Assembly (NCBI GenBank): GCA_023253175.1
Contig: JALRHH010000001.1
Location: 428,020 to 492,019, forward strand
Source of the DNA: Candidatus Saccharimonadia bacterium
Lineage (GTDB): Bacteria; Patescibacteriota; Saccharimonadia; Saccharimonadales; JALRHH01
Length of the DNA stretch: 64,000 nt
Reading direction: 5' to 3'
The notes below the pieces were generated by a model. That model made no database searches, was not told the DNA's origin, and saw only the letters and a list, made by a program, of their open reading frames with translations. How positions within the stretch are numbered: position 1 is the stretch's first letter; each line of letters starts with the position of its first letter. Position numbers and translations under genes: made by a program. Below are positions 3,127 to 43,630 of this stretch, one piece after another.

Positions 3127-4164
3127 TTATTTTGGTTGCTCATCGATAGCACCAAGTGCTTCTTTAAGCTCGTCTGGCTCTTCGAGCTTCAGCGGCTTCT
3201 TGCTCTTGATCTCGTACTTAAGACCAGTCATTGGTGATTCGTAGTAATCGTCGTTTAGGAGGTTTACGAACTTGGTGAGGTCTTTGGTATCCATGATGAT
3301 AATTGAACCGTTTGTGTCGGTCATCATTTCGATTCCCAGCTCTTCTGCGTGATTCAGCAGTTCATCTTGTTTCACGTTAGTTGGGTCAATCTTTTGCAGC
3401 TTATTAACAAGTGCTTTCTTTTCCATAACCATTGAATTGAGACTGGCGCCTTCTTCAAAGCTGAGTTTGAAGTTATCCTGAATTTCCGCGACTTTCTTTT
3501 CTGCGATCGCTGCTTTTTTGGCGTTGTAGTTAAACAGCTGTTCAAGCTTGGTCTGGTTAAAGACGAAAATATCCTGGTCGACAATAAGTAACTGGTTGTC
3601 GGTTGGAATACGTAGCGCCCCGTCTGCGTCGAACGGCACGAACTTACCGCCGCGGACTAACCACCCAGCGTTACCCTTCATCATGTTTGAACTTGGCAAT
3701 ACCTTTGCAACGTAAAATGGCTGTTCCATTTCAGGATGAGAGATACGTGCAATCACGCCCTTAATACGCTTGAGGTCGTGTTCTTCCTCAACAAACTGTT
3801 CGATCTCGGCCTCTTGTGTACGGAGCCAGCTCAGCACTTCCCTGGCCTTCACGACGTTAATGAGCTTTGTTTTCTGAAGAACCATTTGCTCTTGCTCTGC
3901 ATCCTCAAAATTACGGACTACAAGTCCCTGGTCTGCACCCTCAAGCACGTATTCAAGGATTGGATCAATTAAGATTGAGTGCAGGTGCATCTCAAGGTCC
4001 TTGGACCTCGAAGTCTTATACACCACTGAGTTTTTGTTAATCAAAAATAATTCTATTTTGAGGTCTTCCTTGAGCTGCACAAGGTTGTTCGCCCATAAGA
4101 AAATGTCTGTCTCCTGGTAATCATCCTGAAGCTCTTGTTCGTTCACTGATTTGTTTTCTTCCAT
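3127..4164 (-). CDS. KwaB-like (DUF4868-like) protein
   Basis: 345 aa, soluble. Central segment LLIVDQDIFVFNQTKLEQLFNY and C-terminal LLNDDYYESPMTGLKYEIKSKK resemble my recollection of the DUF4868/KwaB family. Not verified by any search. Confidence 0.5.
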   Translation of the reverse strand: MEENKSVNEQELQDDYQETDIFLWANNLVQLKEDLKIELFLINKNSVVYKTSRSKDLEMHLHSILIDPILEYVLEGADQGLVVRNFEDAEQEQMVLQKTKLINVVKAREVLSWLRTQEAEIEQFVEEEHDLKRIKGVIARISHPEMEQPFYVAKVLPSSNMMKGNAGWLVRGGKFVPFDADGALRIPTDNQLLIVDQDIFVFNQTKLEQLFNYNAKKAAIAEKKVAEIQDNFKLSFEEGASLNSMVMEKKALVNKLQKIDPTNVKQDELLNHAEELGIEMMTDTNGSIIIMDTKDLTKFVNLLNDDYYESPMTGLKYEIKSKKPLKLEEPDELKEALGAIDEQPK

Positions 4165-4169
4165 GAAAA

Positions 4170-4182
4170 CTATTCTAACCCA
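4170..4182 (-). promoter_or_regulatory. putative extended -10 promoter (TGGGTTAGAATAG) for the KwaB-like gene; apparently leaderless
   Basis: The reverse complement of 4170-4182 is TGGGTTAGAATAG. The TAGAAT hexamer (4172-4177) lies 7 nt from the ATG at 4164. No Shine-Dalgarno sequence in between. Confidence 0.4.
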
Positions 4183-4204
4183 GCATGACTCAAAGACGTG
4201 TTGT

Positions 4205-4227
4205 AATTATCAAGCGGCTTGATAATT
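4205..4227. promoter_or_regulatory. perfect 23-bp palindrome AATTATCAAGC-g-GCTTGATAATT (operator or RNA hairpin)
   Basis: 11-bp arms read directly from the sequence. The right arm overlaps the stop codon of the 209-aa gene. The palindrome sits just upstream of the -35 region of the putative KwaB-like promoter. Confidence 0.5.
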
Positions 4228-4856
4228 TAGTACCTGCGGGACTTTAGTAAAGTCTTTGTGACGAGGCCGCCAAGCGCAAGTCCGACGCCCACTATGGCGG
4301 CATTTTTAAGATTTGCCTTGACATCCTCTACATCAACATCAATTTCCAACCAGAAGCGCTTTATGCCCTCACGAGGCATTTTTTCAGATATATCAATAAA
4401 ATTATCTATGTCTGCACATAAATTACTTGAGTACTTACTATAAATTAATTCTCCGAGTTCCTTTACACTTTCAGCTTTTTCAAAAAGCGACTCCACAATT
4501 GTGATAACTCGTGTCTCATCAAACATGTCGTAGTATTCAGAGCCAACAAGACGATTAAATAGCTCACCTCGCTTATTGTCATCGGCGACCCAAAGACGAG
4601 CAATAGTGGTTCTTGCTTCCTCGGCAGATTCTGCAAGAGACCCAAACACCTCTGTTGATAGATCAGTAAAATGAGTCGCTTGATTCGTAATCTGCTCTGC
4701 GAGCACATCTGAGTATTGTTCGTAGTCCGGCTTGTCTTTAAATATGCCACTCAAAAGACTATGTAGCATGAACTGTCCTTCGTCAAAACTCGCCATTGAA
4801 TCAAGTAGGCCCGAGTCTAGCCCCTCGAACGGCTCTTCATAGCCAAATTTACCCAT
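4227..4856 (-). CDS. hypothetical tail-anchored membrane protein
   Basis: 209 aa. Acidic soluble body with a single C-terminal TM (AAIVGVGLALGGLVTKTLL) followed by KSRRY. Overlaps the upstream gene by 8 nt. Confidence 0.55.
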   Translation of the reverse strand: MGKFGYEEPFEGLDSGLLDSMASFDEGQFMLHSLLSGIFKDKPDYEQYSDVLAEQITNQATHFTDLSTEVFGSLAESAEEARTTIARLWVADDNKRGELFNRLVGSEYYDMFDETRVITIVESLFEKAESVKELGELIYSKYSSNLCADIDNFIDISEKMPREGIKRFWLEIDVDVEDVKANLKNAAIVGVGLALGGLVTKTLLKSRRY

Positions 4857-5643
4857 TAACAGACCTCTCTTCCTCTTCTTCGTGTGGAAGAATAACTTTC
4901 AAAATATTCTTTGCGGCATTCATGACACCCACCTCTGTAACAATGCTATTACTCTCAATATTCTGGTACAACATGTCAACTGCCATGGTTAGCTGAAGCT
5001 CCTTGAGCACGGAAGATCCGAGGTCAGCAAACATCTTTAGATCATCTTCATCAAATACCTCATCAAGATCGGCAGATTCAGGCCCTTCTAGCGTCTCTGC
5101 TACCAACGAAGCCTCGGACTGCGCCTGCATTGGTAAACTAGACTGAGCTCGTGCACCAGGTAGCTCAACAGGAGTCTCATCAACATATGCATATACCTGC
5201 AGTAAATCTTCTATTGTTCCATCAGACGTAACGGTTACCGTATAATCACACCCGATTGCGAGCCTCGTTTCCGAATTATCAAGCAGCCTAAGCCACTCTT
5301 CTGTCGGAACTAATTCTCCGTCAACCAGCTCAGTCTGACCATACTGTAGTGCCTCCCAAACATCGTCCGGAAAAGCAATTCTTGAAAGCTCGTTGAACCT
5401 TGCCTCGCCAATAATTTTGTATGTTGTTAAAAGAATCTCATCATCCTCATCCGAGACAACACGCTCCGCATTGAAAGAATAGCTATTTGACGTCAGGTTA
5501 TAGAAATCGGCATTAGAGCGAGCAAATCTCGTAAATGATTCATCGTGTTCTTTATATCCTTGATCGAGCTGCCCCGCAATCTTTTCGAGCTCCATGGCAA
5601 ACCTAAGTACATCCGATTCCGACTCTGCCCCAAATTCGCTCAT
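4849..5643 (-). CDS. hypothetical acidic protein
   Basis: 264 aa, strongly D/E-rich, no recognised motif. Translationally coupled on both sides (4-nt and 8-nt overlaps). Confidence 0.55.
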   Translation of the reverse strand: MSEFGAESESDVLRFAMELEKIAGQLDQGYKEHDESFTRFARSNADFYNLTSNSYSFNAERVVSDEDDEILLTTYKIIGEARFNELSRIAFPDDVWEALQYGQTELVDGELVPTEEWLRLLDNSETRLAIGCDYTVTVTSDGTIEDLLQVYAYVDETPVELPGARAQSSLPMQAQSEASLVAETLEGPESADLDEVFDEDDLKMFADLGSSVLKELQLTMAVDMLYQNIESNSIVTEVGVMNAAKNILKVILPHEEEEERSVNG

Positions 5644-6281
5644 GCTGCGGCCTCATTATCAAACTGATTCACTGTGTCCAGCATACGTTCCTTTATCTCT
5701 TCAATTGCTTCTGGATAGAGTGGTTGACGCCATTTTGAACCGTATGGCACCACTTGGTCTATGAGCACTTGAGTATCTGGATGTAGGTAAGTATCAACGA
5801 CTGGGTTATAGTTAACGATCGTTAGTTTTGTGCCAGTCGCCTGGCCATCCGCGCCCCACTCCAACTGATAAAGTTCGCGTGTATTTGAATATCGAAGTTT
5901 ATCGTTAAGAATATATTCCAGAAACGATACGCTTAGCTTCCAAGATCTGAAATCAACCATACCTGTCCTTATGCTAACGAATCGATCAACATCGTTTGAA
6001 CCAATTGGACTGCCGGAGTTTTGGAGTAACGTAAACTGGTGAAGCCTATTTCTAACTCGTGGCCTTCTGGCGCTTTCTCTAAGTACACCCATCGCCACTG
6101 CCTGCAAAGATAGCACATCCTTTAATGGCAATCCTGGCAAATCGTCTACAGATTCAATTTCAACCACACTAGATTTTCTGCTTACAGTGTGACTTAGATC
6201 AGATAATGCGTGGAGCCTCAGATCATCTGTATCTAGATGACCTTGTTTTTGCTCCACCCTTTTTAGAGCTTCGGTTTCCAT
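5640..6281 (-). CDS. hypothetical protein (first gene of the accessory operon)
   Basis: 213-aa ORF. On the minus strand a TATAAT box (6288-6293) lies 6 nt upstream of the ATG. Confidence 0.55.
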   Translation of the reverse strand: METEALKRVEQKQGHLDTDDLRLHALSDLSHTVSRKSSVVEIESVDDLPGLPLKDVLSLQAVAMGVLRESARRPRVRNRLHQFTLLQNSGSPIGSNDVDRFVSIRTGMVDFRSWKLSVSFLEYILNDKLRYSNTRELYQLEWGADGQATGTKLTIVNYNPVVDTYLHPDTQVLIDQVVPYGSKWRQPLYPEAIEEIKERMLDTVNQFDNEAAA

Positions 6282-14750: not shown

Positions 14751-15863
14751 CTATTGTACCTTTTTTACTTCTACTTCGATTGATCCATCAATAAGGCGGA
14801 TATCCAATACTTGACCCTGCTTCACACCTACGGCAGATTTAATAACACTACCTTGGCTCGTCACCAGTGCATAACCTCTCTTCATAGCCTCCTCTGGACT
14901 AAGCGCCTCCAGTAACCGAGAAATACCCACCAGATTCCTTTTTCGATCACCAATCAGTCGTAGCACGACTTCACTTAATTGTTCTCGTTTAATGCGCAGC
15001 GCCGTCTGCTTGTCACTGACCTGCGCCAGTAGCCCAGCGGATAACCTACGCTTTATATCAGCCAAAACTTGCTGCTCATACGTCCTATCTGGCGTGAGCA
15101 TTTCCGCAGCATTACTTGGAGTACTGGCTCGTCTATCAGCAGCAAGCTCAGCCAAACTAACATCAACCTCGTGACCAATGGCAACCAGCGTGGGTACACG
15201 ACTTGCCGCTACAGCACGAGTAACTTGCTCCGTAGAAAACGCTGCCAAATCATCACTGCTTCCACCGCCGCGCGTAATGACGAGTACATCAACTGGCTCG
15301 GCCTGGCTATTAAAAAACTCAATAGCTTTGATAATCTGTGCCGGCGCTGCTTCGCCCTGAACCTGGACATCAAATAGTTCGATATCGATACCACCCCAGC
15401 GGCTGCTGAGTATTTTCATAAAATCGTGATAAGCAGCGGATTCAGACGAAGTGACCAGACCGATGCGCTTTGGTGGATACGGCAAGCTTCTTTTACGTGA
15501 TTCATCAAATAGGCCTTCGAGCGCGAGTTTCTTTTCAAGCAGCGCAGCAGCTTTTTTAAGCGAACCCTCGCCCACCGGCTGGACGGCTCGTAGGTTCACA
15601 CTAAAGCCAAACTGTTGGTGCAATCTCGGGCTACCGCCAATTTGAACCATCAATCCGTCTTCGAGCGGCCCCGGCAACATGTATACCGTACCAAAACATT
15701 TAACGCTGGAGTACTCATCCTTTAGGTCAAAATACACCCAGCGATTTTTACTGACACGGTAATTCGATATTTCACCGACAATCGCCACATCTGGATACGC
15801 ATAATCCATCGTCTGGTTCAGTACCGCAACAAAATCAGAGACCGAAAAAATGATATCAGACAT
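14751..15863 (-). CDS. xseA: exodeoxyribonuclease VII large subunit
   Basis: N-terminal OB-fold (VAIVGEISNYRVSKNRWVYFDLKD) and the catalytic region VLVITRGGGSSDDL. I prefer the ATG at 15863 (MSDIIFSV…) to the track start at 15926. Confidence 0.9.
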   Translation of the reverse strand: MSDIIFSVSDFVAVLNQTMDYAYPDVAIVGEISNYRVSKNRWVYFDLKDEYSSVKCFGTVYMLPGPLEDGLMVQIGGSPRLHQQFGFSVNLRAVQPVGEGSLKKAAALLEKKLALEGLFDESRKRSLPYPPKRIGLVTSSESAAYHDFMKILSSRWGGIDIELFDVQVQGEAAPAQIIKAIEFFNSQAEPVDVLVITRGGGSSDDLAAFSTEQVTRAVAASRVPTLVAIGHEVDVSLAELAADRRASTPSNAAEMLTPDRTYEQQVLADIKRRLSAGLLAQVSDKQTALRIKREQLSEVVLRLIGDRKRNLVGISRLLEALSPEEAMKRGYALVTSQGSVIKSAVGVKQGQVLDIRLIDGSIEVEVKKVQ

Positions 15864-16902
15864 GTATCTTCGCAGGCTTACCGTGCAGCGCTCGGTAGTA
15901 GAGCCAGCCTCCCTGCGGCAACGCAATTGCCATGTTTAGCACGCGGTACATAATCGTAACCGGCAGACTCACGCTTGCCGGCACGCCCGCAGCGATCAGC
16001 ACACCGGTCATTAAGGCCTCGTAGATACCGATTCCACCCGGAAGCACCGAAATAATACCCGCAAAGTTCGCAATCGCATACGCCAGAATAATCGCACCAG
16101 GGTTCACCAGCTCACCAAACGCTATATACACCACATAAATAGATGCAAGCTCCGCCAGGCTGAAACAGAGCCCGAACAAAAACGGCCGCTTCAGCTGGTG
16201 CAAATTACGACGAATCTTCATGTAGTTATCATGTAGCTCCATGAATGCGTTCTGTGCTTTGCTGATATTAATTGTTTCTGGGTGCTTTGGCCTGACAATA
16301 TGAATCAGGAGATTCACGGCTTTTGTAACAAACGTAAAGAATGCCGTAATCCTGCCTCTGTGACCAATGATGTATGCCAAAAGTCCCGTACCAACCAACA
16401 GTAGCGTCGTCAGTGAGCTTGCCGCTAGAATAGTCAGGTTGTTAACGTCGCCGTGCAGTGACAACATAAATACACCGACAAATAACAACACCTGGAATCC
16501 ACTAAAGATCGTCATAAATCGCATGAGCTGTACAAGCGTAGCCTGTCCGGTGGTGATTCCTTCATTCTTTAATCGAATTGGCAGGTATGAGAATCCACTG
16601 ACACCACCACTTGGAAACACATTATTAATAAAGTTCAGTTCAAGCGTCAGGCGATACATTGATTTCGTACGGAATCGCTCGCCCAGAGCCCTAAAAATTC
16701 CCTGATATAGCTTTCCTTGGCTGTAGTAACTTGCCACATGGAGCGGAATGAGCAGTAGTAGCACCCAAGCGTTAACCCTTGCGAGGTTTTGGATCGTTTC
16801 CGCGATCTGTTCGCGCAAAATGTATGCCAGACCCACCATTGCTAAAATGGTGAACCAGGTAAAAAACATTCGCGCGCGTCGGCGCTTTTGTTGTTCGGTC
16901 AT
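15856..16902 (-). CDS. polytopic membrane protein, flippase-like / lysylphosphatidylglycerol-synthase TM-region family (putative)
   Basis: About 8 TM segments. The family assignment comes from the general pattern only. I prefer the ATG at 16902 (MTEQQKRRRARMFF…). Confidence 0.45.
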   Translation of the reverse strand: MTEQQKRRRARMFFTWFTILAMVGLAYILREQIAETIQNLARVNAWVLLLLIPLHVASYYSQGKLYQGIFRALGERFRTKSMYRLTLELNFINNVFPSGGVSGFSYLPIRLKNEGITTGQATLVQLMRFMTIFSGFQVLLFVGVFMLSLHGDVNNLTILAASSLTTLLLVGTGLLAYIIGHRGRITAFFTFVTKAVNLLIHIVRPKHPETINISKAQNAFMELHDNYMKIRRNLHQLKRPFLFGLCFSLAELASIYVVYIAFGELVNPGAIILAYAIANFAGIISVLPGGIGIYEALMTGVLIAAGVPASVSLPVTIMYRVLNMAIALPQGGWLYYRALHGKPAKIHV

Positions 16903-16977
16903 CAGGAAATAGTATACCGCAGGATCGAATAAATAGATGCGTCCCATTATTCTACAGAGACAAAACACCTATAAAAT

Positions 16978-16993: not shown

Positions 16994-18199
16994 ATGTCAC
17001 AATCCGTACTAGTTCTTGGACGCCAGCCAGCCCTCGGTATCGCAGAAGCCGAGAGTCTATTTGGTGCCGATAAAATCACACCTATTGGCAGCCAGTTCGT
17101 GCTCCTGGACGCCCGTATTCAGGATGTACCGTTCAGTCGACTTGGTGGATCCACGCGCGTCGCCAAACTTTTAACCTTCCTTCCTTATACTGACTGGGAA
17201 AAAATTGAAAAGTATCTTGCCGAAGAACTGCCGAAACATACGTGCTGCTTGCCCGAAGGAAAGATTCGCCTCGGACTCAGTGTCTACAACCTCAGTGTTA
17301 ATATCAGGCGCCTTAACGCGACTGGCCTGACCCTTAAAAAAGCCGTCAAGGCGGACGGACGTTCTGTTCGCGTGGTGCCTAACAAAGAACATGAGCTCAA
17401 CACTGCACAGGTCATTCACAATCAGCTGACTGGCCCGACCGGCATGGAGCTACTATTGATCAGAGACGGCGAACGAACCGTACTTGCCCAAACAACTGCT
17501 GTTCAAGATATCGAAGCATACGCAGCCCGCGACCAAGCCCGCCCGGCCCGCGACGCCCGTGTTGGCATGCTTCCACCTAAACTCGCCCAGATCATCATCA
17601 ACCTCTCGACCGGCAATCAACCAGTTTCTATGGACACAGAAATACTTGATCCATTCTGCGGCACCGGCGTAGTACTGCAAGAGGCAGATCTTATGGGCTT
17701 CCGCGTAGAAGGATCTGATCTAGAAGAAAGGATGATCGATTACTCACACGACAATCTTGTGTGGCTTTCCCAAAAACCAGAGTCTGGGCTCCACGGGCTA
17801 AATCCTGATCAAATAATGTGCCAACTCTCGGTTGGTGATGCGACAACTTTCAACTGGAAACCAGTACCAAACTTCATCGCATGCGAAACATATCTTGGAC
17901 AACCCTTCTCTACTGAACCTAATCCTGAAAAACTCAAGCAAGTCATGAGTGATGTCGATACCATTCACCGCAAATTTCTACAGAATGTCGCTCGCCAAAC
18001 TGAATCTGGATTCCGTATGTGTATCGCCGTGCCGGCTTGGTTCACTAAAAGCGGTGTTCGGCACCTCAAAACCCTTGATTCTCTCGAGGAATTAGGCTAT
18101 AATCGTGTAAGTTTTGTCCATTCGGACACGCGGGATCTCATTTATCACCGAGAAAATCAGGTGGTGGGCCGCGAACTAGTAATACTTATAAGGAAGTAA
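16994..18199 (+). CDS. putative RNA (guanine-N2) methyltransferase, Trm11/UPF0020-like
   Basis: 401 aa. The SAM motif DPFCGTGVVLQEA is followed by GSDLEERMI. The expected (D/N)PPY motif is replaced by CETYLGQPF. Confidence 0.55.
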   Translation: MSQSVLVLGRQPALGIAEAESLFGADKITPIGSQFVLLDARIQDVPFSRLGGSTRVAKLLTFLPYTDWEKIEKYLAEELPKHTCCLPEGKIRLGLSVYNLSVNIRRLNATGLTLKKAVKADGRSVRVVPNKEHELNTAQVIHNQLTGPTGMELLLIRDGERTVLAQTTAVQDIEAYAARDQARPARDARVGMLPPKLAQIIINLSTGNQPVSMDTEILDPFCGTGVVLQEADLMGFRVEGSDLEERMIDYSHDNLVWLSQKPESGLHGLNPDQIMCQLSVGDATTFNWKPVPNFIACETYLGQPFSTEPNPEKLKQVMSDVDTIHRKFLQNVARQTESGFRMCIAVPAWFTKSGVRHLKTLDSLEELGYNRVSFVHSDTRDLIYHRENQVVGRELVILIRK

Positions 18200-20087: not shown

Positions 20088-20480
20088 CTATACGAGACCA
20101 AGGTGACGCTTGACGCGGTCTACTACATCGGCAATTACAACCTGCGACTTCACGAGATAATCATCAACACCGAGGCTCTTAGCACGTTCCTGGTCGCTTT
20201 CCTGACTGAGTGCAGTTAGCATAATTACCTTCACATTAACTGTTTCAGGAGTATTGCGGAGAATATCCAGCACATCAAACCCACTTACCTTTGGCATCAT
20301 TACATCCAGCAAAATCAAATCAGGACGATATTCCAGCGTTGCAGCCAATGCATCTTCGCCGTTTGGCACACGACGGATGTCAAAGCCTTCTGCCTGTAAC
20401 CTGGTTTGATATACACTTGCGAGCGCGTCGTCGTCCTCAACGAGCAAGATTTTTTTAGAATGTGTGTTTGTGCTATCCAT
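20088..20480 (-). CDS. stand-alone CheY-like response regulator (canonical)
   Basis: KKILLVEDDD, phospho-acceptor LILLDVMMP, MLTA and LVKS are all present. There is no output domain. I prefer the ATG at 20480. Confidence 0.85.
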   Translation of the reverse strand: MDSTNTHSKKILLVEDDDALASVYQTRLQAEGFDIRRVPNGEDALAATLEYRPDLILLDVMMPKVSGFDVLDILRNTPETVNVKVIMLTALSQESDQERAKSLGVDDYLVKSQVVIADVVDRVKRHLGLV

Positions 20481-26013: not shown

Positions 26014-26973
26014 TTATTTCGGTGTCTTGAATTTTAGATAACGCTGCGTAGCAATGACAGACGATACAGCACCAATTAGTATACCGATTACAAGCTGGCC
26101 GGTCAATATGAGCAAGAAATTGTCAGAGAAATATTTGCTTGCAAAGTTGATGTCCAATAGACCGAAGCTACTTGCACCGAGCGTGCTAGATGATACGACG
26201 AATAAGAAGTGACAGATCGTTACCGAAAGGATTGATGCGATCACGCCGTACACAACTGTCTCGACAACGAATGGCCCACGAATAAACCATGTGCTTGCAC
26301 CAAGCAAGCGCATAATCTGCAGTTCATCGCGGCGGTTAAATATAGCCATTCGAATCGTGTTAAAGATAATCAGCATTGATACGATTGCGAACACCGCCAC
26401 GCCAACGAGACCCGCTGTCTGGAAGAAACGAGTTGCACTCGTAATGTTATCGATGGCGTCCTTGCGCTCTCCAGAATATGAAGTCGCATCTGACTGGAGT
26501 GCCTTGATATCTGGGCTTTCAATAAACGTACGGATCTCTTCGATTTTGTTTGGATCTTTTGGCTTGACACGAAGACTTGCAGGCAGTGGATTGTCGGTCT
26601 GAGAAATTGCCGCAAGCAAGTCCGGCTTGTCCTGGTTTGCTTTCTTGTAATCTTCCAGCGCCTGGTCCTTGGATACGAATTCTACAGACTTTACATTCTC
26701 GAGTGCCTTGAACTGATCAATAACCTCTTCGCGCTTCTGTGCGCCAACATCATCTTTCAGGTATACAGAAATGTCGATCTTATCCGTAATTTGCTGGACC
26801 GTATTATTAAACGTTGCACTGGTAATCAATGAGAATAGAATGATCGTTAAAGTAATGACCATCACCGCAATTGCGGCAATTGCCAGGGTTAAATTACGTG
26901 CGAAGTTCTGTAGACCAGTCTTTACGATACGCCACTGCGTAATTAAGAAGTGATTTCCAGGCGCTTTAGCCAC
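26014..26973 (-). CDS. ftsX: cell division permease-like protein FtsX
   Basis: Four TM segments with a large extracytoplasmic loop, immediately after ftsE. The start is uncertain. GTG at 26973 has AGGGGGG 5 nt upstream; alternatives are ATG at 26997 or the track start at 27036. Confidence 0.8.
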   Translation of the reverse strand: MAKAPGNHFLITQWRIVKTGLQNFARNLTLAIAAIAVMVITLTIILFSLITSATFNNTVQQITDKIDISVYLKDDVGAQKREEVIDQFKALENVKSVEFVSKDQALEDYKKANQDKPDLLAAISQTDNPLPASLRVKPKDPNKIEEIRTFIESPDIKALQSDATSYSGERKDAIDNITSATRFFQTAGLVGVAVFAIVSMLIIFNTIRMAIFNRRDELQIMRLLGASTWFIRGPFVVETVVYGVIASILSVTICHFLFVVSSSTLGASSFGLLDINFASKYFSDNFLLILTGQLVIGILIGAVSSVIATQRYLKFKTPK

Positions 26974-27667
26974 GAGCACCCCCCTGCGTTTGGCCATAGT
27001 CGGCGTTCGCACGGTCACTCGCAATACGGCCATCATCTATCGTTACGACTCGCCTTTTCAGCTTGTTCACAATTTCTATATTGTGCGTTGTGAGGAGCAC
27101 TGTTGTACCGTAGTGATTGATCTTTTCAAGAATCTTGATGATGTCCCACGCGTGCTTTGGGTCGAGATTTCCGGTTGGCTCATCGGCAATCAGGATTTTG
27201 GGCTGACGAACAATGGCACGCGCAATTGCCACGCGCTGGCGCTCACCACCAGAGAGTTCCTGCGGCATACGCTTTTCCTTGCCCTTTAGGCCAACAATAT
27301 CGAGAACTCTTGGCACGGTGTGTTCAATTTCTTTGTTCCCAAAGCCAACTATCTCGAGTGCAAAGGCGACATTTTCGAATACATTTCGGTTTGGTAGTAG
27401 TTTAAAGTCCTGGAACACCACGCCAATTTTACGGCGCAGCAGTGGAATATCCTTGTCCTTAAGCTTGTCATAATCAATGCCGCCAATGACAATCTTGCCA
27501 CTGGTTTGGCGCTCTTCCCTGGTCAAAAGTTTGAGGAGTGTTGATTTACCGGCACCAGATTTACCGATAATAATCACGAACTCTTTTGGTTCAACGTGCA
27601 AGCTAATACGATCAAGTGCGGTATTAGAGCGGTTATAGACCTTTGTTACCCTGTCGAGAAGAATCAT
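26966..27667 (-). CDS. ftsE: cell division ATP-binding protein FtsE
   Basis: Walker A GKSGAGKST, ABC signature LSGGERQRV and Walker B ILIADEP. Confidence 0.95.
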   Translation of the reverse strand: MILLDRVTKVYNRSNTALDRISLHVEPKEFVIIIGKSGAGKSTLLKLLTREERQTSGKIVIGGIDYDKLKDKDIPLLRRKIGVVFQDFKLLPNRNVFENVAFALEIVGFGNKEIEHTVPRVLDIVGLKGKEKRMPQELSGGERQRVAIARAIVRQPKILIADEPTGNLDPKHAWDIIKILEKINHYGTTVLLTTHNIEIVNKLKRRVVTIDDGRIASDRANADYGQTQGGARG

Positions 27668-34695: not shown

Positions 34696-35493
34696 TTACT
34701 TCTTAGAAATCTTGGACTTCAAAGCCTCGAGAGTGAGTTCTGTTCGCTGGCGAGCGTAGGTACAGAATTCGCAAGGACCACCCATCGCAGCAGTGCCAAT
34801 TGGCGGCATCGTGTCACTGTCCATACATGCTTTCATTGCCACAATGGTCTGCTCCACCCAGTCTGATGATCCGGTATGAGGAAACACATGTGTCACAAAT
34901 TCTACTCGATTGTTGAATCCATCGAGATCCTGACGGCCAGTTGCATACACAAAATATCCAGTATCACTCACTGCAAAGCCGTTTTGACGAAGTAGCCACT
35001 GGTATACCTCCATCTGGCGACGGTACATGTCGTGCCACGTTCCCTCTGGGCCAAGCGCCGTTACGGGCTTATCCTTAGCAGTTGCTTTGTAATCAACCAC
35101 GATAAGTTCACCATCGTCGTTTACCCAAATATCATCAACCGCCCCAAAAATATGAAGGTTGGTTGGTTTATGCAGGGTGGTTATGCCTGTAAAGTTGTAG
35201 CGCCATGTATCAAGATCATCGTGTTGATACGGCACTGCTTTGATCTGATTGTCGAGCATCAATGGATGAGGCTCGCCCTTTGCCCGGTAGCCATCAAATT
35301 CTTTTTTAAATAGTTCATCAATAGCTTTGTTGATATTAAACGGAGGTCCGCTTGGGCGCGTAATTTTGAGCCGAGCGTCCAGCCAAAAGCAGCGCTGACA
35401 CTGCATGAACAGTTCTATTTTGCTGCGTGACAATTTAAACGGTGTTTTTTGACCCGGTAAATACGGCTGTGATCGTTCCCTCGTGTAACTCAT
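34696..35493 (-). CDS. PD-(D/E)XK nuclease family protein, Cas4/RecB-like, with Cys cluster
   Basis: 265 aa. N-terminal CQRCFW plus C-terminal CEFCTY resemble 4Fe-4S ligands as in the Cas4/AddB type. The nuclease core is GAVDDIWV…VVDYKAT. Confidence 0.6.
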   Translation of the reverse strand: MSYTRERSQPYLPGQKTPFKLSRSKIELFMQCQRCFWLDARLKITRPSGPPFNINKAIDELFKKEFDGYRAKGEPHPLMLDNQIKAVPYQHDDLDTWRYNFTGITTLHKPTNLHIFGAVDDIWVNDDGELIVVDYKATAKDKPVTALGPEGTWHDMYRRQMEVYQWLLRQNGFAVSDTGYFVYATGRQDLDGFNNRVEFVTHVFPHTGSSDWVEQTIVAMKACMDSDTMPPIGTAAMGGPCEFCTYARQRTELTLEALKSKISKK

Positions 35494-37690: not shown

Positions 37691-38383
37691 CTAAGGAAGA
37701 AGCTTTGCGGCAGCCGTAACAGCGGCAGTTTCAGCGCGGAGTGTGAACTGGCCAAGACCAAGATGAGGTAGGTTGTGCTGGGTAAAAAGTTCATGCTCCG
37801 CGTCACTCCAACCGCCTTCTGGACCAATAAGCACACCAATTGAATCACCGCTGGTTGCCTCAGGAATAGCGCCGCCCTGTTCGCATATGACGAGCGGTAT
37901 ACTCTGCCCAACATGATCAAGCGCCGTTTTTACAAGCATTGGCTCCCGTACGTTCGGTATATCGCTACGACCACATTGCTCCGCAGCCTCGATCACGATC
38001 TTATGCGCACGCTCTGCGTCAAAACCAGTCTTTTCTGAACGCTCTGCGAGCATCGGCACAAAATGTGTCACACCGAGCTCAGTCGCCTTTTGGAGCACCC
38101 AATCATTCTTATCCTTTTTGAGCAGTGACCACAGTAGATACACCTCCTTTGATGGAAGCTGCCGCTCGTAATCAGTCACAAGCTCTAAATGCGCTTCGTC
38201 TGGCTTAATTTCCACAATCTTGTACAACCTATCGGTTTGCGCGCCATCAAATAACAAGACATTCTGCCCTGCCTGATAACGTAAAACTTTGTTCCACTGA
38301 TGAATAAGCCGCTCATCGTGTAGCCAAAATGAATGTTTTAATTCAAATTCATTACCGACATAAAACCTGTGAACTCGGCTCAT
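37691..38383 (-). CDS. rsmE: 16S rRNA (uracil1498-N3)-methyltransferase
   Basis: The N-terminus MSRVHRFYV…, the size (230 aa) and the C-terminal GPEGGW motif are typical of RsmE. Confidence 0.85.
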   Translation of the reverse strand: MSRVHRFYVGNEFELKHSFWLHDERLIHQWNKVLRYQAGQNVLLFDGAQTDRLYKIVEIKPDEAHLELVTDYERQLPSKEVYLLWSLLKKDKNDWVLQKATELGVTHFVPMLAERSEKTGFDAERAHKIVIEAAEQCGRSDIPNVREPMLVKTALDHVGQSIPLVICEQGGAIPEATSGDSIGVLIGPEGGWSDAEHELFTQHNLPHLGLGQFTLRAETAAVTAAAKLLP

Positions 38384-39627
38384 TTTACCTCCAGGATCGC
38401 TAAACTTTCTATATGTGGTGTACGCGGGAAGAAATTAAAACCCTCGATACTTTTAATCGTATACTTTTCCTGCAGTAGCGCCAAGTCACGCGCCTGAGTA
38501 ATTGGATTGCAGCTGAGATATATGACTTTCGCGGGTAGCACTTCCAATATCCTGTCGGTCACTTTTTGGTGCAATCCAGCCCTAGGAGGATCAAGGATCA
38601 ATGTTTCATCAGCAGTGATGTGATCAAGCGCGGTTTCGGCGGAAGCATGCACAATCTCGGTTTTTCCCTCTCCAACATTTTGTTTTGCCATAGCGACGTT
38701 ATGTTCGTCAATTTCAATAAGACGGTTAGCGCCTACCGGGATGCCAATCGTGCCTACGCCGGAATACATATCGGCACTAGAGCCGTCTATCTCACCAGCA
38801 ATTCGATCAAGCGCCTTGCTGAAGATTTCTAGATTGACCTGGAAAAATGAATTTACATCGTAGGTTATCGGAACGCCTTTTATAGCATCCGTTAATCTGA
38901 CATCGCCGTATAGATACAGCTCCCGCGTCAAAACACTGGCTGGGCTTTTTGGATTTGAATAGTAAACTGCCACCCCTTTAGCGGCTCCCGCAAGCTCAGG
39001 CAGATCCGGGAATGATTCATCTTTCACAAATAACGCTACAACCGCATCACCGTTTTGATTTGCACGCACCACAACCGTTTTTAACTGAGAACCTCGAATG
39101 TCGTTTTGATTTAGTATCTCTACGATCTTAGCTGCAGTCTCATCAATAAGAGGCATGGCGATACTACTGCCGTTAATGATCTGCTTGCGATGAGAGCCTC
39201 GATTAAATAATGCCAGATGCAGGCCATCGTCATCCGCCCAGAAGCTGTATTCCATCTTATTACGATAGTGCCACTGCTTTTCACCGGCCTGCATTGTGAT
39301 TTCAGATGGAAAATCCACATGTTCGCGCTGCATTGTCTCGACAAGGATTTCACGCTTGTATTCATTCTCTTTATCAAAGTCCATAATCTGCCACGGACTC
39401 GTGCTAAGATACGCATCATCTTTTGGTGGTAGCCTAAATTCAGAAGGAATAACGATCTCTTCTGCAATTCCTTCGGCATGACCACGCTTACTCTTAGTGA
39501 GCCTAACGCTCATGGTCTCGCCAGGTAACGCATTCCACACAAAGACACGCCGACCATCCGCCAGCGTGCCTATGCCTTGCCCACCGTGAACAAGCTTTTC
39601 AATTGTAACTTTTTGGAGTTCCATCAA
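38380..39627 (-). CDS. 23S rRNA (uracil-C5)-methyltransferase, RlmD/RumA family
   Basis: N-terminal TRAM-like domain (VHGGQGIG…), a methyltransferase core with DPPRAG, and a C-terminal nucleophile region (YLSCNP). Confidence 0.85.
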   Translation of the reverse strand: MMELQKVTIEKLVHGGQGIGTLADGRRVFVWNALPGETMSVRLTKSKRGHAEGIAEEIVIPSEFRLPPKDDAYLSTSPWQIMDFDKENEYKREILVETMQREHVDFPSEITMQAGEKQWHYRNKMEYSFWADDDGLHLALFNRGSHRKQIINGSSIAMPLIDETAAKIVEILNQNDIRGSQLKTVVVRANQNGDAVVALFVKDESFPDLPELAGAAKGVAVYYSNPKSPASVLTRELYLYGDVRLTDAIKGVPITYDVNSFFQVNLEIFSKALDRIAGEIDGSSADMYSGVGTIGIPVGANRLIEIDEHNVAMAKQNVGEGKTEIVHASAETALDHITADETLILDPPRAGLHQKVTDRILEVLPAKVIYLSCNPITQARDLALLQEKYTIKSIEGFNFFPRTPHIESLAILEVK

Positions 39628-39630
39628 TCC

Positions 39631-40635
39631 TTATTTTTGCAGACCAACAATTAGGATGACTGCAAGCAGTAGCTTTGAGACTACGAGAATACGACTCAGA
39701 TTGCGGTTCACGAATGCAAAATCATATTGCCTTTTAAAGCCGTTCCACTGAATACGAGTCGTAGCCAGAAGCGAGATTGAAACCACTGCAGCGGCTGCGT
39801 ATGCATACCACGGAGATCGAACCGCAACTGACGCGCCATCAGTACCAAAGATGTATGTGGAGATCATCGTAATAACAAGGAATACGACAGGTAATACCGC
39901 AAGCACAGCACTCACCGCATAAATGCCACGAGTCGGCTTACCAGTTGCTGCGTTCTCACGCTCAAATACCCATGCAAGATATGCCGAGATTAAAATAGCG
40001 ATCGCGCTGAGTTTGAGTGCAATGAGGTCCTGCACGCCATTAAGGAGTGCCGCAATTGAAAATGCCACAGATGTGGTAACCGCATAATCAATCCATCGAA
40101 GACTGCTAACTTTATTGGTAACAGCAGCCTGATCTTTGGCCAAGTACTTGGTTCCACGTAGGATTGCAACAACGGCAGCCAATACGAGAAATCCAACTGC
40201 TAGCCAGCGGAATTCTACTTCGTACAGTACGTGTGCCGCAGGTGCGAGAACCGTACCGGCAGTACTTGCAAGCTCATCCTTCGTAAGATGTCCGAGTAGT
40301 ACCTGCACTGAAGTCGTGTTCATAAAGTATGCTGCAAGTCCTGCGAGAACCGCGAACACAATACCAAGCTGAACCTGAAGACGGTTTAGTAGCGGCGTTA
40401 CACCAGAAACTGAAGCCTTAGCAACTGGCTTTGGAGCCTCTGCTGGCTTGATAGTTGACTTAGTGGTTGCTACCGCTTTTTTTACAGCTGGTTTCTTAGC
40501 AGCCCTTGAGGTGGTAGCCTTGGTAGTTCTTGCCGCCTTTACTGCTGGCTTGGTTGCCTTTGCAGTAGATTTTGTAGAAGGCTTTTTATTTGTAGTTTTG
40601 GTCTTTGCCTGAGTTTTAGAAGTTGTCTTTGCCAT
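39631..40635 (-). CDS. heliorhodopsin-like 7-TM protein with Lys/Ala/Thr-rich N-terminal extension
   Basis: Seven predicted TM segments. LRWIDYAVTTSV aligns with FRWVEYSLSSSV, GVQDLIAL with GIADIVAL, VAVRSPWY with VAVPGFVY, and ILVVSKLLLAV with LSLVAKSALAW (the retinal Lys) of heliorhodopsin 48C12. The 48C12 sequence is recalled from memory. The first ~83 aa are a KAT(P)-rich basic tail. Confidence 0.6.
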   Translation of the reverse strand: MAKTTSKTQAKTKTTNKKPSTKSTAKATKPAVKAARTTKATTSRAAKKPAVKKAVATTKSTIKPAEAPKPVAKASVSGVTPLLNRLQVQLGIVFAVLAGLAAYFMNTTSVQVLLGHLTKDELASTAGTVLAPAAHVLYEVEFRWLAVGFLVLAAVVAILRGTKYLAKDQAAVTNKVSSLRWIDYAVTTSVAFSIAALLNGVQDLIALKLSAIAILISAYLAWVFERENAATGKPTRGIYAVSAVLAVLPVVFLVITMISTYIFGTDGASVAVRSPWYAYAAAAVVSISLLATTRIQWNGFKRQYDFAFVNRNLSRILVVSKLLLAVILIVGLQK

Positions 40636-40641
40636 GCGAAC

Positions 40642-40650
40642 AGTGTATCA
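40642..40650 (-). promoter_or_regulatory. extended -10 promoter TGATACACT, 6 nt from the ATG (leaderless)
   Basis: The reverse complement of 40642-40650 is TGATACACT. The ATG is at 40635. Confidence 0.4.
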
Positions 40651-40674: not shown

Positions 40675-41229
40675 TTATGATTCATAGATAGCCGGATCAA
40701 CACGTTCATATTTCGGCAGAACCTGGCGCAGCACATATAATGCAATCTGCCGCGTACTCTCAGGTATCATACCCTGCTCAATCGCCTCGATCTCGCCGGC
40801 CGTCATGATCTTTATATCTTGTGATTCACCTTCATGTGGTGGGAGCGCAGGCAAATCCTTTGCAACAAATGCATACCCGCGGTCGGTATGATAGTGCGGC
40901 TGGGGTGTGCCATCACCAGTATCAATAAGATGTGTATTTTCGTTTACTGGCATCGGGTGTGACACGGCGTTTTGAAGTATGTCTAATCGAAGTCTTGGCT
41001 GTAAAAGCTCAAGCTCCGAAAGCCGATAGCCTGATTCCTCTACGAGTTCATGTGTTATCGCCTGCCAAGGAGTTTCACTAAGTTCAACATGACCGCCAAA
41101 CTGCATCCATACATGTATTTTCTTATGTAGATGCAATAGAATACCTGGTTCCGCACTTTCTCGCTCAACCACAATATATGCCGATGATGTAGCGTCGTGC
41201 TGTCCTGCCTCTTTGTGAATATGTGGCAT
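40675..41229 (-). CDS. NUDIX hydrolase
   Basis: Nudix box GGHVELSETPWQAITHELVEESGY, matching G-x5-E-x7-(R/H)-E-x2-E-E-x-G. Confidence 0.8.
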   Translation of the reverse strand: MPHIHKEAGQHDATSSAYIVVERESAEPGILLHLHKKIHVWMQFGGHVELSETPWQAITHELVEESGYRLSELELLQPRLRLDILQNAVSHPMPVNENTHLIDTGDGTPQPHYHTDRGYAFVAKDLPALPPHEGESQDIKIMTAGEIEAIEQGMIPESTRQIALYVLRQVLPKYERVDPAIYES

Positions 41230-41234
41230 GTAAT

Positions 41235-41720
41235 TTACTCCTTTATTGGCTCGTACGGGATGTGACAGGCACCGCGCCCGGTTCGCTCTGCAAATTTCTG
41301 GTGATAATCTTCAGCCTCGTAAAAGACGGTAGCCGGAACAATCTGCGTTACGATTGGCCTATCAAAGTTGCTCGACGAAAGCTCGAGCACGGATTGAGCC
41401 ATCTGCTTTTGTGCATCATCTACGAAAAATATAGCCGATCGATAACTATCACCGATATCCGGACCTTGCCTATTTAGCTGAGTTGGGTCATGCATATGAA
41501 AAAACTGTTTCAGGAGCGTTTCGTATGAAACTTGTGATTCATCAAATTCTAACTCCACTGCTTCGGCATGTCCGGTTGTATGGGTACAGACTTCTTCATA
41601 CGTCGGGTTTTCAGTATGACCGCCTGTATAGCCAACACGGCTCGATATCACACCCGGAACTTGGTCGAAATAATATTGCACACCCCAGAAACAACCTGCC
41701 GCAAATATAGCTTTTGCCAT
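41235..41720 (-). CDS. msrA: peptide methionine (S)-sulfoxide reductase
   Basis: Active-site AAGCFWGVQ near the N-terminus. 161 aa. Confidence 0.95.
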   Translation of the reverse strand: MAKAIFAAGCFWGVQYYFDQVPGVISSRVGYTGGHTENPTYEEVCTHTTGHAEAVELEFDESQVSYETLLKQFFHMHDPTQLNRQGPDIGDSYRSAIFFVDDAQKQMAQSVLELSSSNFDRPIVTQIVPATVFYEAEDYHQKFAERTGRGACHIPYEPIKE

Positions 41721-42022
41721 TATTCTTCAACTACCGCGCTGCGCCAAAATGCAACGTAATTAGAGAAATCTTTCTTTACCTGCTCGATCGCAGATGGCAA
41801 GGGTTCAGGATATGACCATGCATCGTCCTGCGCCGTAGTCGTCCCGTCAGTAATCGTAAAGTACTGACAAACGCCTTTCCAAGGGCAAGTATAAGGTGTG
41901 TCGCTTTTTACCAAATAATCAGCATTTACACTTGATGGTGGAAAATACCAATTGCCTTCAATATAAATAAGATCTTCTTTTGGCGCCTCGGCAATTGTAT
42001 TACCATTCCACACTACTTTCAT
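41720..42022 (-). CDS. DUF427 domain protein
   Basis: 100 aa. The pattern WNGNTIAEAP…WYFPPSSV…TCPWKGVCQYF is typical of DUF427. Confidence 0.7.
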   Translation of the reverse strand: MKVVWNGNTIAEAPKEDLIYIEGNWYFPPSSVNADYLVKSDTPYTCPWKGVCQYFTITDGTTTAQDDAWSYPEPLPSAIEQVKKDFSNYVAFWRSAVVEE

Positions 42023-42100: not shown

Positions 42101-43630
42101 TTATTTCTCGAGACGAAGTCGAGCAACGAGCCAATCACGCGGCAGGAGGCTCAGGAACCAGCCCGCTCGCGGACCTGATGTCTGACCAATGATCAAAGCG
42201 TACAGTGACTGGAACAAATCTTTGGGACCCATTTCATCAGTCTTGAATGCATATATTGCATCATGGAAGTAGCTACCGTCAGCATCGGCCGGGGCAGCCG
42301 CAACTTTCTCTGCAAGTCCCACAAAAAAGGCCTTCTGCTGTTCCGTAAACTGAGATACGTCAAGTGACTCCTTCAGCTCGAACTTTACATCGTCGGGCGC
42401 ACTAACACGTAACCACTCATCAATAAATCGTAGTTCACTGCGAATGATATCAGCTTCTTTGCGGGCTATGTCAGCATACTCAGTTCGAGCAATAACCTCG
42501 ATAGTCTTATCAGCATCCTTAAGCGCAGCTTGGTAACTTGCAACAAGGTGTGTAAATGGAATACGACTAACTGTTTGCTCTGTAACGCCCTCAAGGCACA
42601 GTTCTAACAACTGTTTTTCACCGTCGGTCTTATTAGATTTCGACAACAATTCACTAAACTCATCAACCAGTCGCATTAATGTTGGTCCGGCATCAAAAAA
42701 AAGTAGCTTATCAGGGCTATGACGCATGACGAAGAACCAGACGACCTCTGCCGGTAGTAACTTCAGAAGATCAGCGGCAGTAATGGCATCGCCTTTGCTC
42801 TTGCTCATCTTTTTGGTGTCGCCGGTTTTATTAATGAAATTATATGGGACCGGTAGTGGTGGTCGTGTGTCAAATACCTGCTTTACTAGTTCAACTCCAG
42901 TGTCATATGAGCCGCCTTTGGTTGCATGATCACGGCCAAATGGCTCTGCCTGGACATTAAGTAGTGACCAGCGTGCTGGCCAGTCAATACGCCAGTTCAA
43001 CTTCACCTCACCATGAGCATAACTGACTGTAGCCGGCTGCCCATCCTTGTTCTCGTACACAATTTCTTGGGTGTCTTTCTGAATACTAATGAAACGACGA
43101 TTTTTGAGATAGCCGTCCTCTACAACCTGAACAGGAGACCAGTTTTCGTCAAGGTCGCGGCCCGAGATATCTTTGAGTACTTGCTTAATAACCTCTATGC
43201 TCTCGAGCGCCCTCTCAATGACCGGCACAAAGTAACCACTGCGGTATTTTTCATGAGCACGGATAACGTTAAGATCGAGGTGAAGTCCCCCCGAGGCAAT
43301 TAATAAATCGTTCAGGAAATAGTCCGCATAGGATTGATCACTCCCATCTGGTGAAGGTACATCACAAAGCGGCTTGCCAAGATGTACGCTAAAGTCAGCC
43401 GGCACATCGACCGGTACCTTACGGAAAATATCCAGATCATCAACAACATGATAGTGGATCGCACTTCTGCCCCTGCGGCGCACTTCACGGGCAACAATTT
43501 CTGCTGTTAAAACTTCGCGGAGCGTACCCATGTGGTACGTGCCTGATGGCGACACACCAGAAGACACAACAATATCGCCCTCCGGGTGGCGGGCGATCAA
43601 TTCATCAACAATTGTATTTAACCATTGCAT
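42101..43630 (-). CDS. lysK: lysine--tRNA ligase, class I
   Basis: SGVSPSGTYHMGTLREV (HIGH-type region) and KMSKSKGD (KMSKS) are typical of class I LysRS. Confidence 0.9.
   Translation of the reverse strand: MQWLNTIVDELIARHPEGDIVVSSGVSPSGTYHMGTLREVLTAEIVAREVRRRGRSAIHYHVVDDLDIFRKVPVDVPADFSVHLGKPLCDVPSPDGSDQSYADYFLNDLLIASGGLHLDLNVIRAHEKYRSGYFVPVIERALESIEVIKQVLKDISGRDLDENWSPVQVVEDGYLKNRRFISIQKDTQEIVYENKDGQPATVSYAHGEVKLNWRIDWPARWSLLNVQAEPFGRDHATKGGSYDTGVELVKQVFDTRPPLPVPYNFINKTGDTKKMSKSKGDAITAADLLKLLPAEVVWFFVMRHSPDKLLFFDAGPTLMRLVDEFSELLSKSNKTDGEKQLLELCLEGVTEQTVSRIPFTHLVASYQAALKDADKTIEVIARTEYADIARKEADIIRSELRFIDEWLRVSAPDDVKFELKESLDVSQFTEQQKAFFVGLAEKVAAAPADADGSYFHDAIYAFKTDEMGPKDLFQSLYALIIGQTSGPRAGWFLSLLPRDWLVARLRLEK

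Follow-up and report, generated by a model that had tools for sequence, protein, structure and literature searches.

The locus considered here raises the question of what a heliorhodopsin-like protein with seven transmembrane (TM) helices does with a long, lysine-rich N-terminal tail, and whether that use depends on light. The gene lies within a 64,000-nucleotide stretch of a Candidatus Saccharimonadia bacterium (GenBank contig JALRHH010000001.1, positions 428,020 to 492,019), hereafter the window, which is numbered from its first letter. A first-pass annotation had described an open reading frame (ORF) at 39631-40635 as a heliorhodopsin with an aspartate counterion and a basic, histone-like extension; the ORF is indeed present, but it runs on the minus strand. 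We regard it as almost certain that its product joins a heliorhodopsin-family fold to a genuine, conserved cytoplasmic tail. The features on which this rests are as follows.

39631-40635, minus strand: the whole ORF, 334 amino acids (aa) plus stop, with an ATG start; a divergent heliorhodopsin-family protein by Pfam PF18761, homologs and predicted fold.
40387-40635, minus strand: disordered polycationic K/A/T/P-rich N-terminal tail, residues 1-83, defined by composition, predicted local distance difference test (pLDDT) scores and homologs; predicted to be cytoplasmic.
40579-40635, minus strand: conserved N-terminal motif, residues 1-19, MAKTTSKTQAKTKTTNKKP, with the consensus MA[KT][ST]T..[ST]KAKTKTTKKKP.
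39634-40386, minus strand: 7-TM heliorhodopsin-fold domain, residues 84-334, defined by profile comparison with the PDB, AlphaFold2 and Foldseek.
40213-40311, minus strand: extracellular AB-loop β-hairpin, residues 109-141 (strands 109-120 and 129-141), a heliorhodopsin hallmark, with the near-invariant element GHLTKDELAS.
40087-40098, minus strand: R180-W181-I182-D183, with invariant R and W and with D183 at the counterion position (E107 of heliorhodopsin 48C12); codons read directly.
39673-39675, minus strand: AAG codon of K321, in the column of the retinal Schiff-base lysine (48C12 K241) in both the profile-PDB and MAFFT alignments; codon read directly.
40642-40650, minus strand: extended -10-like box TGATACACT, ending 6 nucleotides (nt) upstream of the ATG, a leaderless-type geometry.

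The heliorhodopsin fold and the cationic tail

The protein matches the Pfam heliorhodopsin profile (PF18761) with 47.9 bits against a gathering threshold of 26.7, and residues 84-325 cover profile positions 2-234 of 242, which bears out the family membership first proposed for it. The NCBIfam equivalog model NF038020 ("heliorhodopsin HeR") scores 46 bits, below its curated cut-off of 100. On its own the protein matches TaHeR (E=2e-7 to 7.5e-7) only over residues 90-260; when 50 family members are combined in a profile, solved heliorhodopsins from the PDB are recovered over the full length, TM7 included, with E=6.5e-42 for TaHeR (6is6) and about 3e-30 for 48C12. From the family alignment AlphaFold2 yields a model (mean pLDDT 80.5) with seven helices (residues 86-104, 142-161, 178-198, 204-231, 236-264, 276-301 and 306-333) together with the two-stranded AB hairpin. 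The ten best Foldseek matches of this model in the PDB are all heliorhodopsins, with type-1 rhodopsins appearing only at E≥0.09; TM-scores against the solved heliorhodopsins 48C12 (6su3, 6uh3) and TaHeR (6is6) range from 0.74 to 0.83, and the best match, 6is6, combines a target-normalised TM-score of 0.83 with a root-mean-square deviation of 2.5 Å and 18% identity. By these sequence and profile criteria the protein is a Pfam-level member of a divergent heliorhodopsin clade and not an equivalog of the characterised heliorhodopsins.

A homolog search recovered 84 relatives, nearly all 310-336 aa long, and also the identical protein on a 950-kb contig; an alignment of 82 members provides the residue counts for what we term the close family. 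An exhaustive search of representative sequences gave 2206 relatives at E≤1e-3, and a wider collection of 229 sequences, including the 150 best representatives at 50% identity, was used for the survey of more distant relatives. Searched with the close-family alignment, reference genomes yielded 18 genomic loci, each from a metagenome-assembled genome of Candidatus Saccharibacteria, Saccharimonadales or Patescibacteria, and among the loci found here the divergent clade is confined to Saccharibacteria/Patescibacteria. Besides TM3, the strongest conservation in the clade falls on GHLTKDELAS in the AB hairpin and on VRSPWYAY at the EF loop and start of TM6 (residues 269-275, 39811-39831). Both elements are predicted to be extracellular and both are unlike canonical heliorhodopsins; they may serve for dimerisation in a manner specific to the clade, or as a surface for external contacts.

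The tail had been placed in the cytoplasm, and the charge distribution agrees with this prediction: without the tail, the loops carry 11 lysines and arginines on the inside and 4 on the outside; with the tail included, the inside gains about 21 more. An N-terminus in the cytoplasm and a "positive-inside, negative-outside" rule have both been reported for heliorhodopsins (PMC7049168).

The basic low-complexity segment of about 83 residues is real. It contains 19 K, 17 A, 17 T, 7 S, 7 P, 6 V, 2 R and a single E, which amounts to 25% K+R, 20% each of A and Thr, 8% P, 1% acidic residues and a net charge of +20. In the AlphaFold2 model its block-mean pLDDT lies between 44 and 58, and it lacks secondary structure through residue 79, with a short helix at 80-83. 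A survey of N-terminal extensions among the wider relatives shows a tail of at least 30 aa in 185 of 229 (50-89 aa in 158) and one of less than 15 aa in 31. The 185 tails have a net charge density of 0.264 ± 0.039 per residue, and tails also occur on canonical-type members. At the tip, K9, A10, K11, T12, K13, T14 and K17 are each at least 90% conserved, and in divergent relatives identity to our protein is 57% over the first 19 residues, 22% over the TM domain and 16% in the middle of the tail. A conserved tip motif is thus combined with conserved length and charge density and a free-running middle sequence. This pattern is, to judge from the alignments, the signature of a functional disordered polyelectrolyte and not of junk or a mis-called start, and it indicates that the tail is translated and under selection.

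No tandem repeats were found at the DNA level, and no free-standing small K-rich gene that could have served as a fusion donor lies beside the tail-less relatives. In about 390 kb of Saccharibacterial DNA (the window plus the fetched loci) only heliorhodopsin ORFs carry such a K/T/A-rich segment. A profile of 30 tails alone gave no match at E≤10 in a collection of 5.8 billion proteins; the HMMER composition correction is the probable cause, and this result is uninformative about carriers other than heliorhodopsins.

The retinal site

The first-pass annotation had held that the Schiff-base lysine is retained and that the counterion is Asp, and both statements stand: K321 in TM7 aligns with K241 of 48C12, and D183 in TM3 aligns with E107. 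Three of the four alignment blocks that it had given were reproduced, and the fourth, in TM7, proved to be two residues out of register; the corrected pairing is NLSRILVVSKLLLAV with AYIVLSLVAKSALAW, and the equivalence of K321 and K241 is unaffected. In the close family, K321 is K in 78 of 82 members, and the counterion motif shows R in 82, W in 82 and either D (62) or E (20) at the counterion column, so that an acidic residue is present in 82/82. An aspartate at this position has also been solved structurally, in the E108D variant of TaHeR (7clj).

Beyond these residues the likeness to 48C12 and TaHeR lies in the 7-TM fold, the AB β-hairpin, the predicted cytoplasmic N-terminus and the retention of the TM3 R-W-x-(E/D)-Y motif, E149 and the TM7 lysine, at an overall identity of only 16-19%. 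The differences are extensive when the comparison follows, one by one, the residue classes that Kovalev et al. (PMC7049168) gave for 48C12. R104, W105, Y108, E149 (the invariant E225 in our protein), Q213, F72 and K241 are kept, and E107 (D183) and S111 (T187) are changed conservatively. The Schiff-base stabilisers S237 (L317) and S76 (A153) are lost. So is most of the polar Schiff-base cavity, in which His23 is replaced by F94, His80 by A157, Asn101 by S177, Glu230 by N310, Tyr92 by D168 and Asn16 by Q87; this set marks heliorhodopsin subfamily 1 (48C12-like; Kovalev 2020), to which our protein does not conform. Also replaced are the polar-cluster residues Q26, S242, W246, Q247, S201, N138 (I) and W173 (V250), and the pocket residues F206 (L289), M141 (S), I142, M115 and N207. 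Finally, the solved proteins align to within 6-9 residues of their chain starts, unlike our protein with its 83-aa cationic tail.

With the pocket so heavily remodelled, retinal binding by this protein is likely but not assured. Within the close family 95% of members keep the lysine and 100% the acid; more K/R exchange would be expected of a salt bridge with a purely structural role. Saccharibacteria lack the retinal-forming gene blh, and their type-1 rhodopsins load external retinal rapidly (PMC9296517). A Pfam survey of 30 ORFs in the window found no carotenoid or retinal genes, second rhodopsin, photolyase or glutamine synthetase.

The tailed clade also includes members with an intact canonical site. 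The canonical-type Saccharibacterial protein P0083, 27% identical to ours, keeps H23, H80, E107, S237, W173 and K241, in contrast to our protein, but carries the same KAKTKTT-type cationic tail. Its neighbourhood (NUDIX, U5-methyltransferase, RsmE, PDDEXK, seryl-tRNA synthetase (SerRS)) is closely similar, which indicates that the two genes are positional orthologs. Saccharimonadia are known to be rich in heliorhodopsins, with 80 occurrences and the motifs SLVAK, SLIAK and SFVAK (PMC9166423). The presence of heliorhodopsins in Saccharibacteria and of N-terminal extensions on heliorhodopsins in general is thus already known; we found no published description of the polycationic tail and its motif, of the His-less clade with an Asp counterion, or of tailed orthologs that lack the lysine.

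Candidate roles of the tail

The tail is probably an element for capturing a polyanion or another partner. The larger reading that we prefer, in which the protein is a sensor that uses scavenged retinal and recruits a polyanionic partner by its cationic tail, is held tentatively and stops somewhat short of probable. According to it the organism would scavenge all-trans retinal, as the absence of blh from Saccharibacteria suggests (PMC9296517), and the retinal would bind K321 with D183 as counterion. The protein would pump no ions and would signal through its cytoplasmic face, as the characterised heliorhodopsins do, and from each dimer two flexible, polycationic tethers would reach into the cytoplasm. 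The tail would then be an extended version of a cationic capture surface, holding a polyanionic partner, with specificity given by the KAKTKTT tip. Light would modulate the recruitment, and the function of scaffold plus tail would persist in relatives that have no chromophore site.

Several known systems offer partial models. AbHeR binds glutamine synthetase through cationic lysines of the third intracellular loop (ICL3; PMC9529153), and further partners are photolyase for TfHeR and an ABC transporter for OcHeR. These heliorhodopsins pump no ions; through cationic residues of the cytoplasmic face they bind cytoplasmic partners, whose activity is modulated by light (PMC9529153, PMC9769723, PMC11109279). 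The same working model, a non-pumping photoreceptor with a cationic cytoplasmic surface for partners, would apply to our protein, with the differences that its cationic surface is a long tail instead of ICL3 and that its gene is accompanied not by a glutamine synthetase, photolyase or ABC gene but by genes for MsrA, NUDIX, DUF427 and RNA methyltransferases. N-terminal fusions have also been catalogued, namely MORN-HeR and Zn-ribbon-HeR, along with the uninterpreted extensions "ntv1-10" (Bulzu et al. 2021, PMC8612252). Like our tail, the MORN and Zn-ribbon additions are cytoplasmic and are proposed to recruit downstream partners. They are, however, folded domains from Firmicutes and Thermoplasmatales, whereas the tail described here is a disordered polycation with a short linear motif, seen here only in Saccharibacteria/Patescibacteria.

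In composition there are parallels with DNA-binding tails. Lys/Ala/Pro-rich tails of this kind are found in the histone H1 C-terminal domain, mycobacterial HupB, chlamydial Hc1/Hc2 and Pseudomonas AlgP; they are disordered, about 25-30% basic with almost no acidic residues, rich in A/P/T/S and patterned with KKP and KPA, features to which the tail of our protein, itself predicted to be disordered, comes close. Saccharibacterial cells are about 0.2-0.3 µm across. Given this H1/HupB-like composition and the tiny cell, nucleic acid (nucleoid DNA, ribosomal or messenger RNA) is our first choice of partner, a possible one that we would not call probable. An anionic lipid, or a purely topogenic role, ranks below it as a doubtful candidate, and an acidic protein comes after that. 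The boldest form of the preferred reading is a membrane-anchored, light-gated nucleic-acid-binding protein, in which the two +20 tails of a dimer would use KAKTKTT to tie nucleoid DNA, ribosomes or mRNA to the membrane and photoisomerisation would alter the tethering; lineages without the lysine would keep a constitutive tether. We consider this form unlikely.

A number of observations weigh against the preferred reading as a whole. No homology ties the tail to nucleic acid: the description "histone-H1-like" relates to composition only, comparisons returned chance-level matches only (E>0.3), and the tail-profile search was empty. The tail is richer in Thr and poorer in Lys than those of histone H1 or HupB, and it differs from all the DNA-binding tails named above in being borne by a 7-TM protein and in ending in KAKTKTT. 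Compared with 48C12, about two thirds of the residue classes given in PMC7049168 are different. The serine of the SxxxK motif in helix 7 is replaced by L317 (LVVSK), and our protein consequently fails the published filter for a "bona fide HeR" (Bulzu 2021, Chiriac 2022); in the family this column holds S in 44, A in 25, N in 6 and L in 3. Arginine stands in place of the lysine in four of the 82 close relatives and in 16 of the 229 wider ones, and 14 of these 16 keep the acidic partner.

The tail is also kept in wider relatives in which lysine and counterion have been lost together. Among the 229, 153 keep both lysine and acid and 25 have lost both, and the losses co-vary. Tailed proteins without the lysine include P0194, P0188, P0190, P0192, P0175, P0207, P0218 and others, with L, A, T, V, S or Y in place of the lysine and often G, S, Y or Q in place of the counterion. 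Judged by these substitutions, they look like chromophore-free descendants of heliorhodopsins, and no paper on lysine-less heliorhodopsins of the Candidate Phyla Radiation (CPR) was found in our literature search. P0194 (locus L029, 5001-5918) has K241 changed to L and E107 to G but retains a 56-aa tail, and it occupies the same syntenic slot as our gene, which implies that the orthologous locus has lost its chromophore site at least once. The survival of the tail after such losses indicates that its role is not strictly dependent on light sensing, and the tail need not be coupled to light at all.

These last observations also speak for a first rival, that the protein is a chromophore-free, heliorhodopsin-derived scaffold in which K321 and D183 form a buried structural ion pair, independent of light, and the 7-TM domain merely anchors the tail. 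The replacement of most pocket and cavity residues (H23F, H80A, S237L, W173V, F206L, M141S, N138I, E230N), the lysine-to-arginine exchanges with their retained acids, the tailed relatives without lysine and acid, and the lack of retinal synthesis in Saccharibacteria and of carotenoid or retinal genes in the window are all as this rival would have it. It nevertheless has to accommodate the presence of lysine and not arginine in nearly all of the close family, the invariant acid, and the retention of Y108, F72, Q213, S111 (as Thr), R104, W105 and E149, as well as the rapid uptake of external retinal by heliorhodopsins and Saccharibacterial type-1 rhodopsins. We consider such a scaffold unlikely.

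A second rival dispenses with a soluble partner: the tail would act at the membrane surface as a topogenic element, lying on anionic head groups or enforcing the N-in orientation, and would stabilise orientation or form clusters. The near-absence of acidic residues at a net charge of +20, a middle portion that conserves charge density and not sequence, and the heliorhodopsin "positive-inside, negative-outside" rule (PMC7049168) are in keeping with it. The window also contains an ORF (15856-16968, minus strand) for an LPG_synthase_TM domain, the TM region of an MprF-like lysyl-phosphatidylglycerol synthase, which bears on membrane charge and on contact between tail and lipid and shows that the cell manages its membrane charge. 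Yet the TM domain alone already satisfies the positive-inside rule, 80 residues far exceed what topology needs, and the 31 short-tailed relatives and all solved heliorhodopsins have tails of less than 15 aa. Pure electrostatics, moreover, leaves unexplained why the first 19 residues are conserved above the membrane domain itself. This explanation we hold to be rather unlikely.

The start of the gene suggests a third rival. The 39-nt spacer after the NUDIX stop contains no Shine-Dalgarno sequence and ends in ...TGATACACT-GTTCGC-ATG. In about 20 homologous loci a TGnTAnnnT box recurs 6-8 nt upstream of the ATG; at one of them the preceding gene is divergent, and the heliorhodopsin there must have its own promoter. 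A generic sigma-70 scan did not flag the site, and the extended -10 box emerged only from the comparison of loci. Among ORFs of 80 aa or more, the window has five with the TGnTAnnnT architecture, against 0.15 expected from shuffles. The leaderless-type promoter proposed for this gene is thereby strengthened, and the conserved promoter geometry supports a leaderless mRNA. The four other ORFs with the box 5-8 nt before the ATG lie at 16994-18199 (plus strand), 20088-20480, 26966-27667 and 34696-35493 (all minus strand); leaderless transcription may be common in the source genome.

On this architecture the motif could owe its conservation to an RNA-level constraint for an A-rich, unstructured 5' end that initiates efficiently, the rest of the tail being a tolerated low-complexity expansion. 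The codons for KAKTKT (codons 9-14, within 40579-40611) do read AAG-GCA-AAR-ACY-AAA-ACY almost without variation across 12 divergent loci (L005-L027): the third positions are those of AAG in 11/12, GCA in 11/12 and AAA in 12/12, and ACG is absent among 24 Thr codons, against a background in heliorhodopsin genes in which AAA makes up 53% (AAA being about as frequent as AAG) and GCA 39% of Ala. This suggests an extra nucleotide-level constraint at the 5' end of the mRNA. Such a constraint, however, would neither fix the order of amino acids across 19 codons nor keep charge density within ±15% over another ~60 residues in 185 proteins, and the other apparently leaderless genes of the window have no such tail. 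It cannot explain the conservation of charge over 80 residues, and as a full account it is improbable.

The last rival, that the true start lies near TM1 and the K-rich stretch is an untranslated annotation artefact, has in its favour some database relatives of 225-243 aa that begin near TM1 (P0023, P0033, P0051, P0053), but most of these come from contigs only about 1-3 kb long, as would fit truncated genes, and with no in-frame ATG between codon 1 and Met105 (beyond TM1), an MA start in 164 of the 185 tailed homologs, frame, motif and length conserved in about 185 proteins and the promoter-like box fixed 6-8 nt (6 nt in our gene) before the annotated ATG, a start downstream of the tail is very unlikely.

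Genomic setting and significance

The genes flanking the heliorhodopsin correspond to those reported at first pass.

38380-39627, minus strand: downstream neighbour with a TRAM domain and a tRNA/rRNA U5-methyltransferase domain (RlmD/RumA-like).
40675-42022, minus strand: upstream neighbours NUDIX (40675-41229), MsrA (41235-41720) and DUF427/NTP_transf_9 (41720-42022).

The overall order is M50 – Rce1 – aminoacyl-tRNA synthetase – GreA – class-I lysyl-tRNA synthetase (LysRS) – DUF427 – MsrA – NUDIX – heliorhodopsin – TRAM/U5-methyltransferase – RsmE – Trypsin_2 – PDDEXK – SerRS. In six homologous loci, spanning 27-100% identity, the U5-methyltransferase directly follows the heliorhodopsin gene in five, and in the sixth (L005) a NUDIX gene comes in between. 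MsrA lies upstream in four of them: in three it is the immediate neighbour, and in the locus studied here NUDIX intervenes. An oxidative-stress hypothesis has been put forward for heliorhodopsins by Bulzu et al. (PMC8612252), and the adjacency to MsrA is compatible with a link to photo-oxidative stress, but as CPR genomes are strongly syntenic it constitutes weak functional evidence.

Other features of the window may be recorded here. The LysRS slot (42101-43630, minus strand) holds a class-I enzyme (PF01921) in our locus and several relatives and a class-II enzyme (PF00152) in L025 and L029; by domain assignment, the class of LysRS at this position has been exchanged within Saccharibacteria. 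An ORF with a KwaB-like domain of the Kiwa anti-phage defence system (3127-4164, minus strand; PF16162, E=8e-11) is followed by three ORFs without a Pfam match (4227-6281), and the region 3127-6281 may be a defence island. Over positions 1-64000 nearly all long ORFs lie on the minus strand and the GC skew is negative throughout (cumulative -2.6). Scans of the window for tRNAs and Rfam families gave no matches.

In the few heliorhodopsins whose function is solved, a cytoplasmic partner is captured electrostatically. The clade described here is large, with 185 of 229 members tailed, and its putative output element is a separable, conserved peptide that could be used as bait for the partner; no paper on Lys-rich heliorhodopsin tails was found in literature searches, one query of which was loosely constrained. 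The canonical members, those without the histidines and those without both lysine and counterion, one of each in the conserved neighbourhood, form a natural series for separating light-dependent from light-independent roles. As filters based on SxxxK would exclude our protein, part of the clade may be under-counted. Should the light-gated tether prove true, a rhodopsin would act on nucleic acid directly, without a transducer protein in between. More broadly, the clade bears on the use of light cues by host-dependent, ultra-small bacteria that are unable to make retinal.

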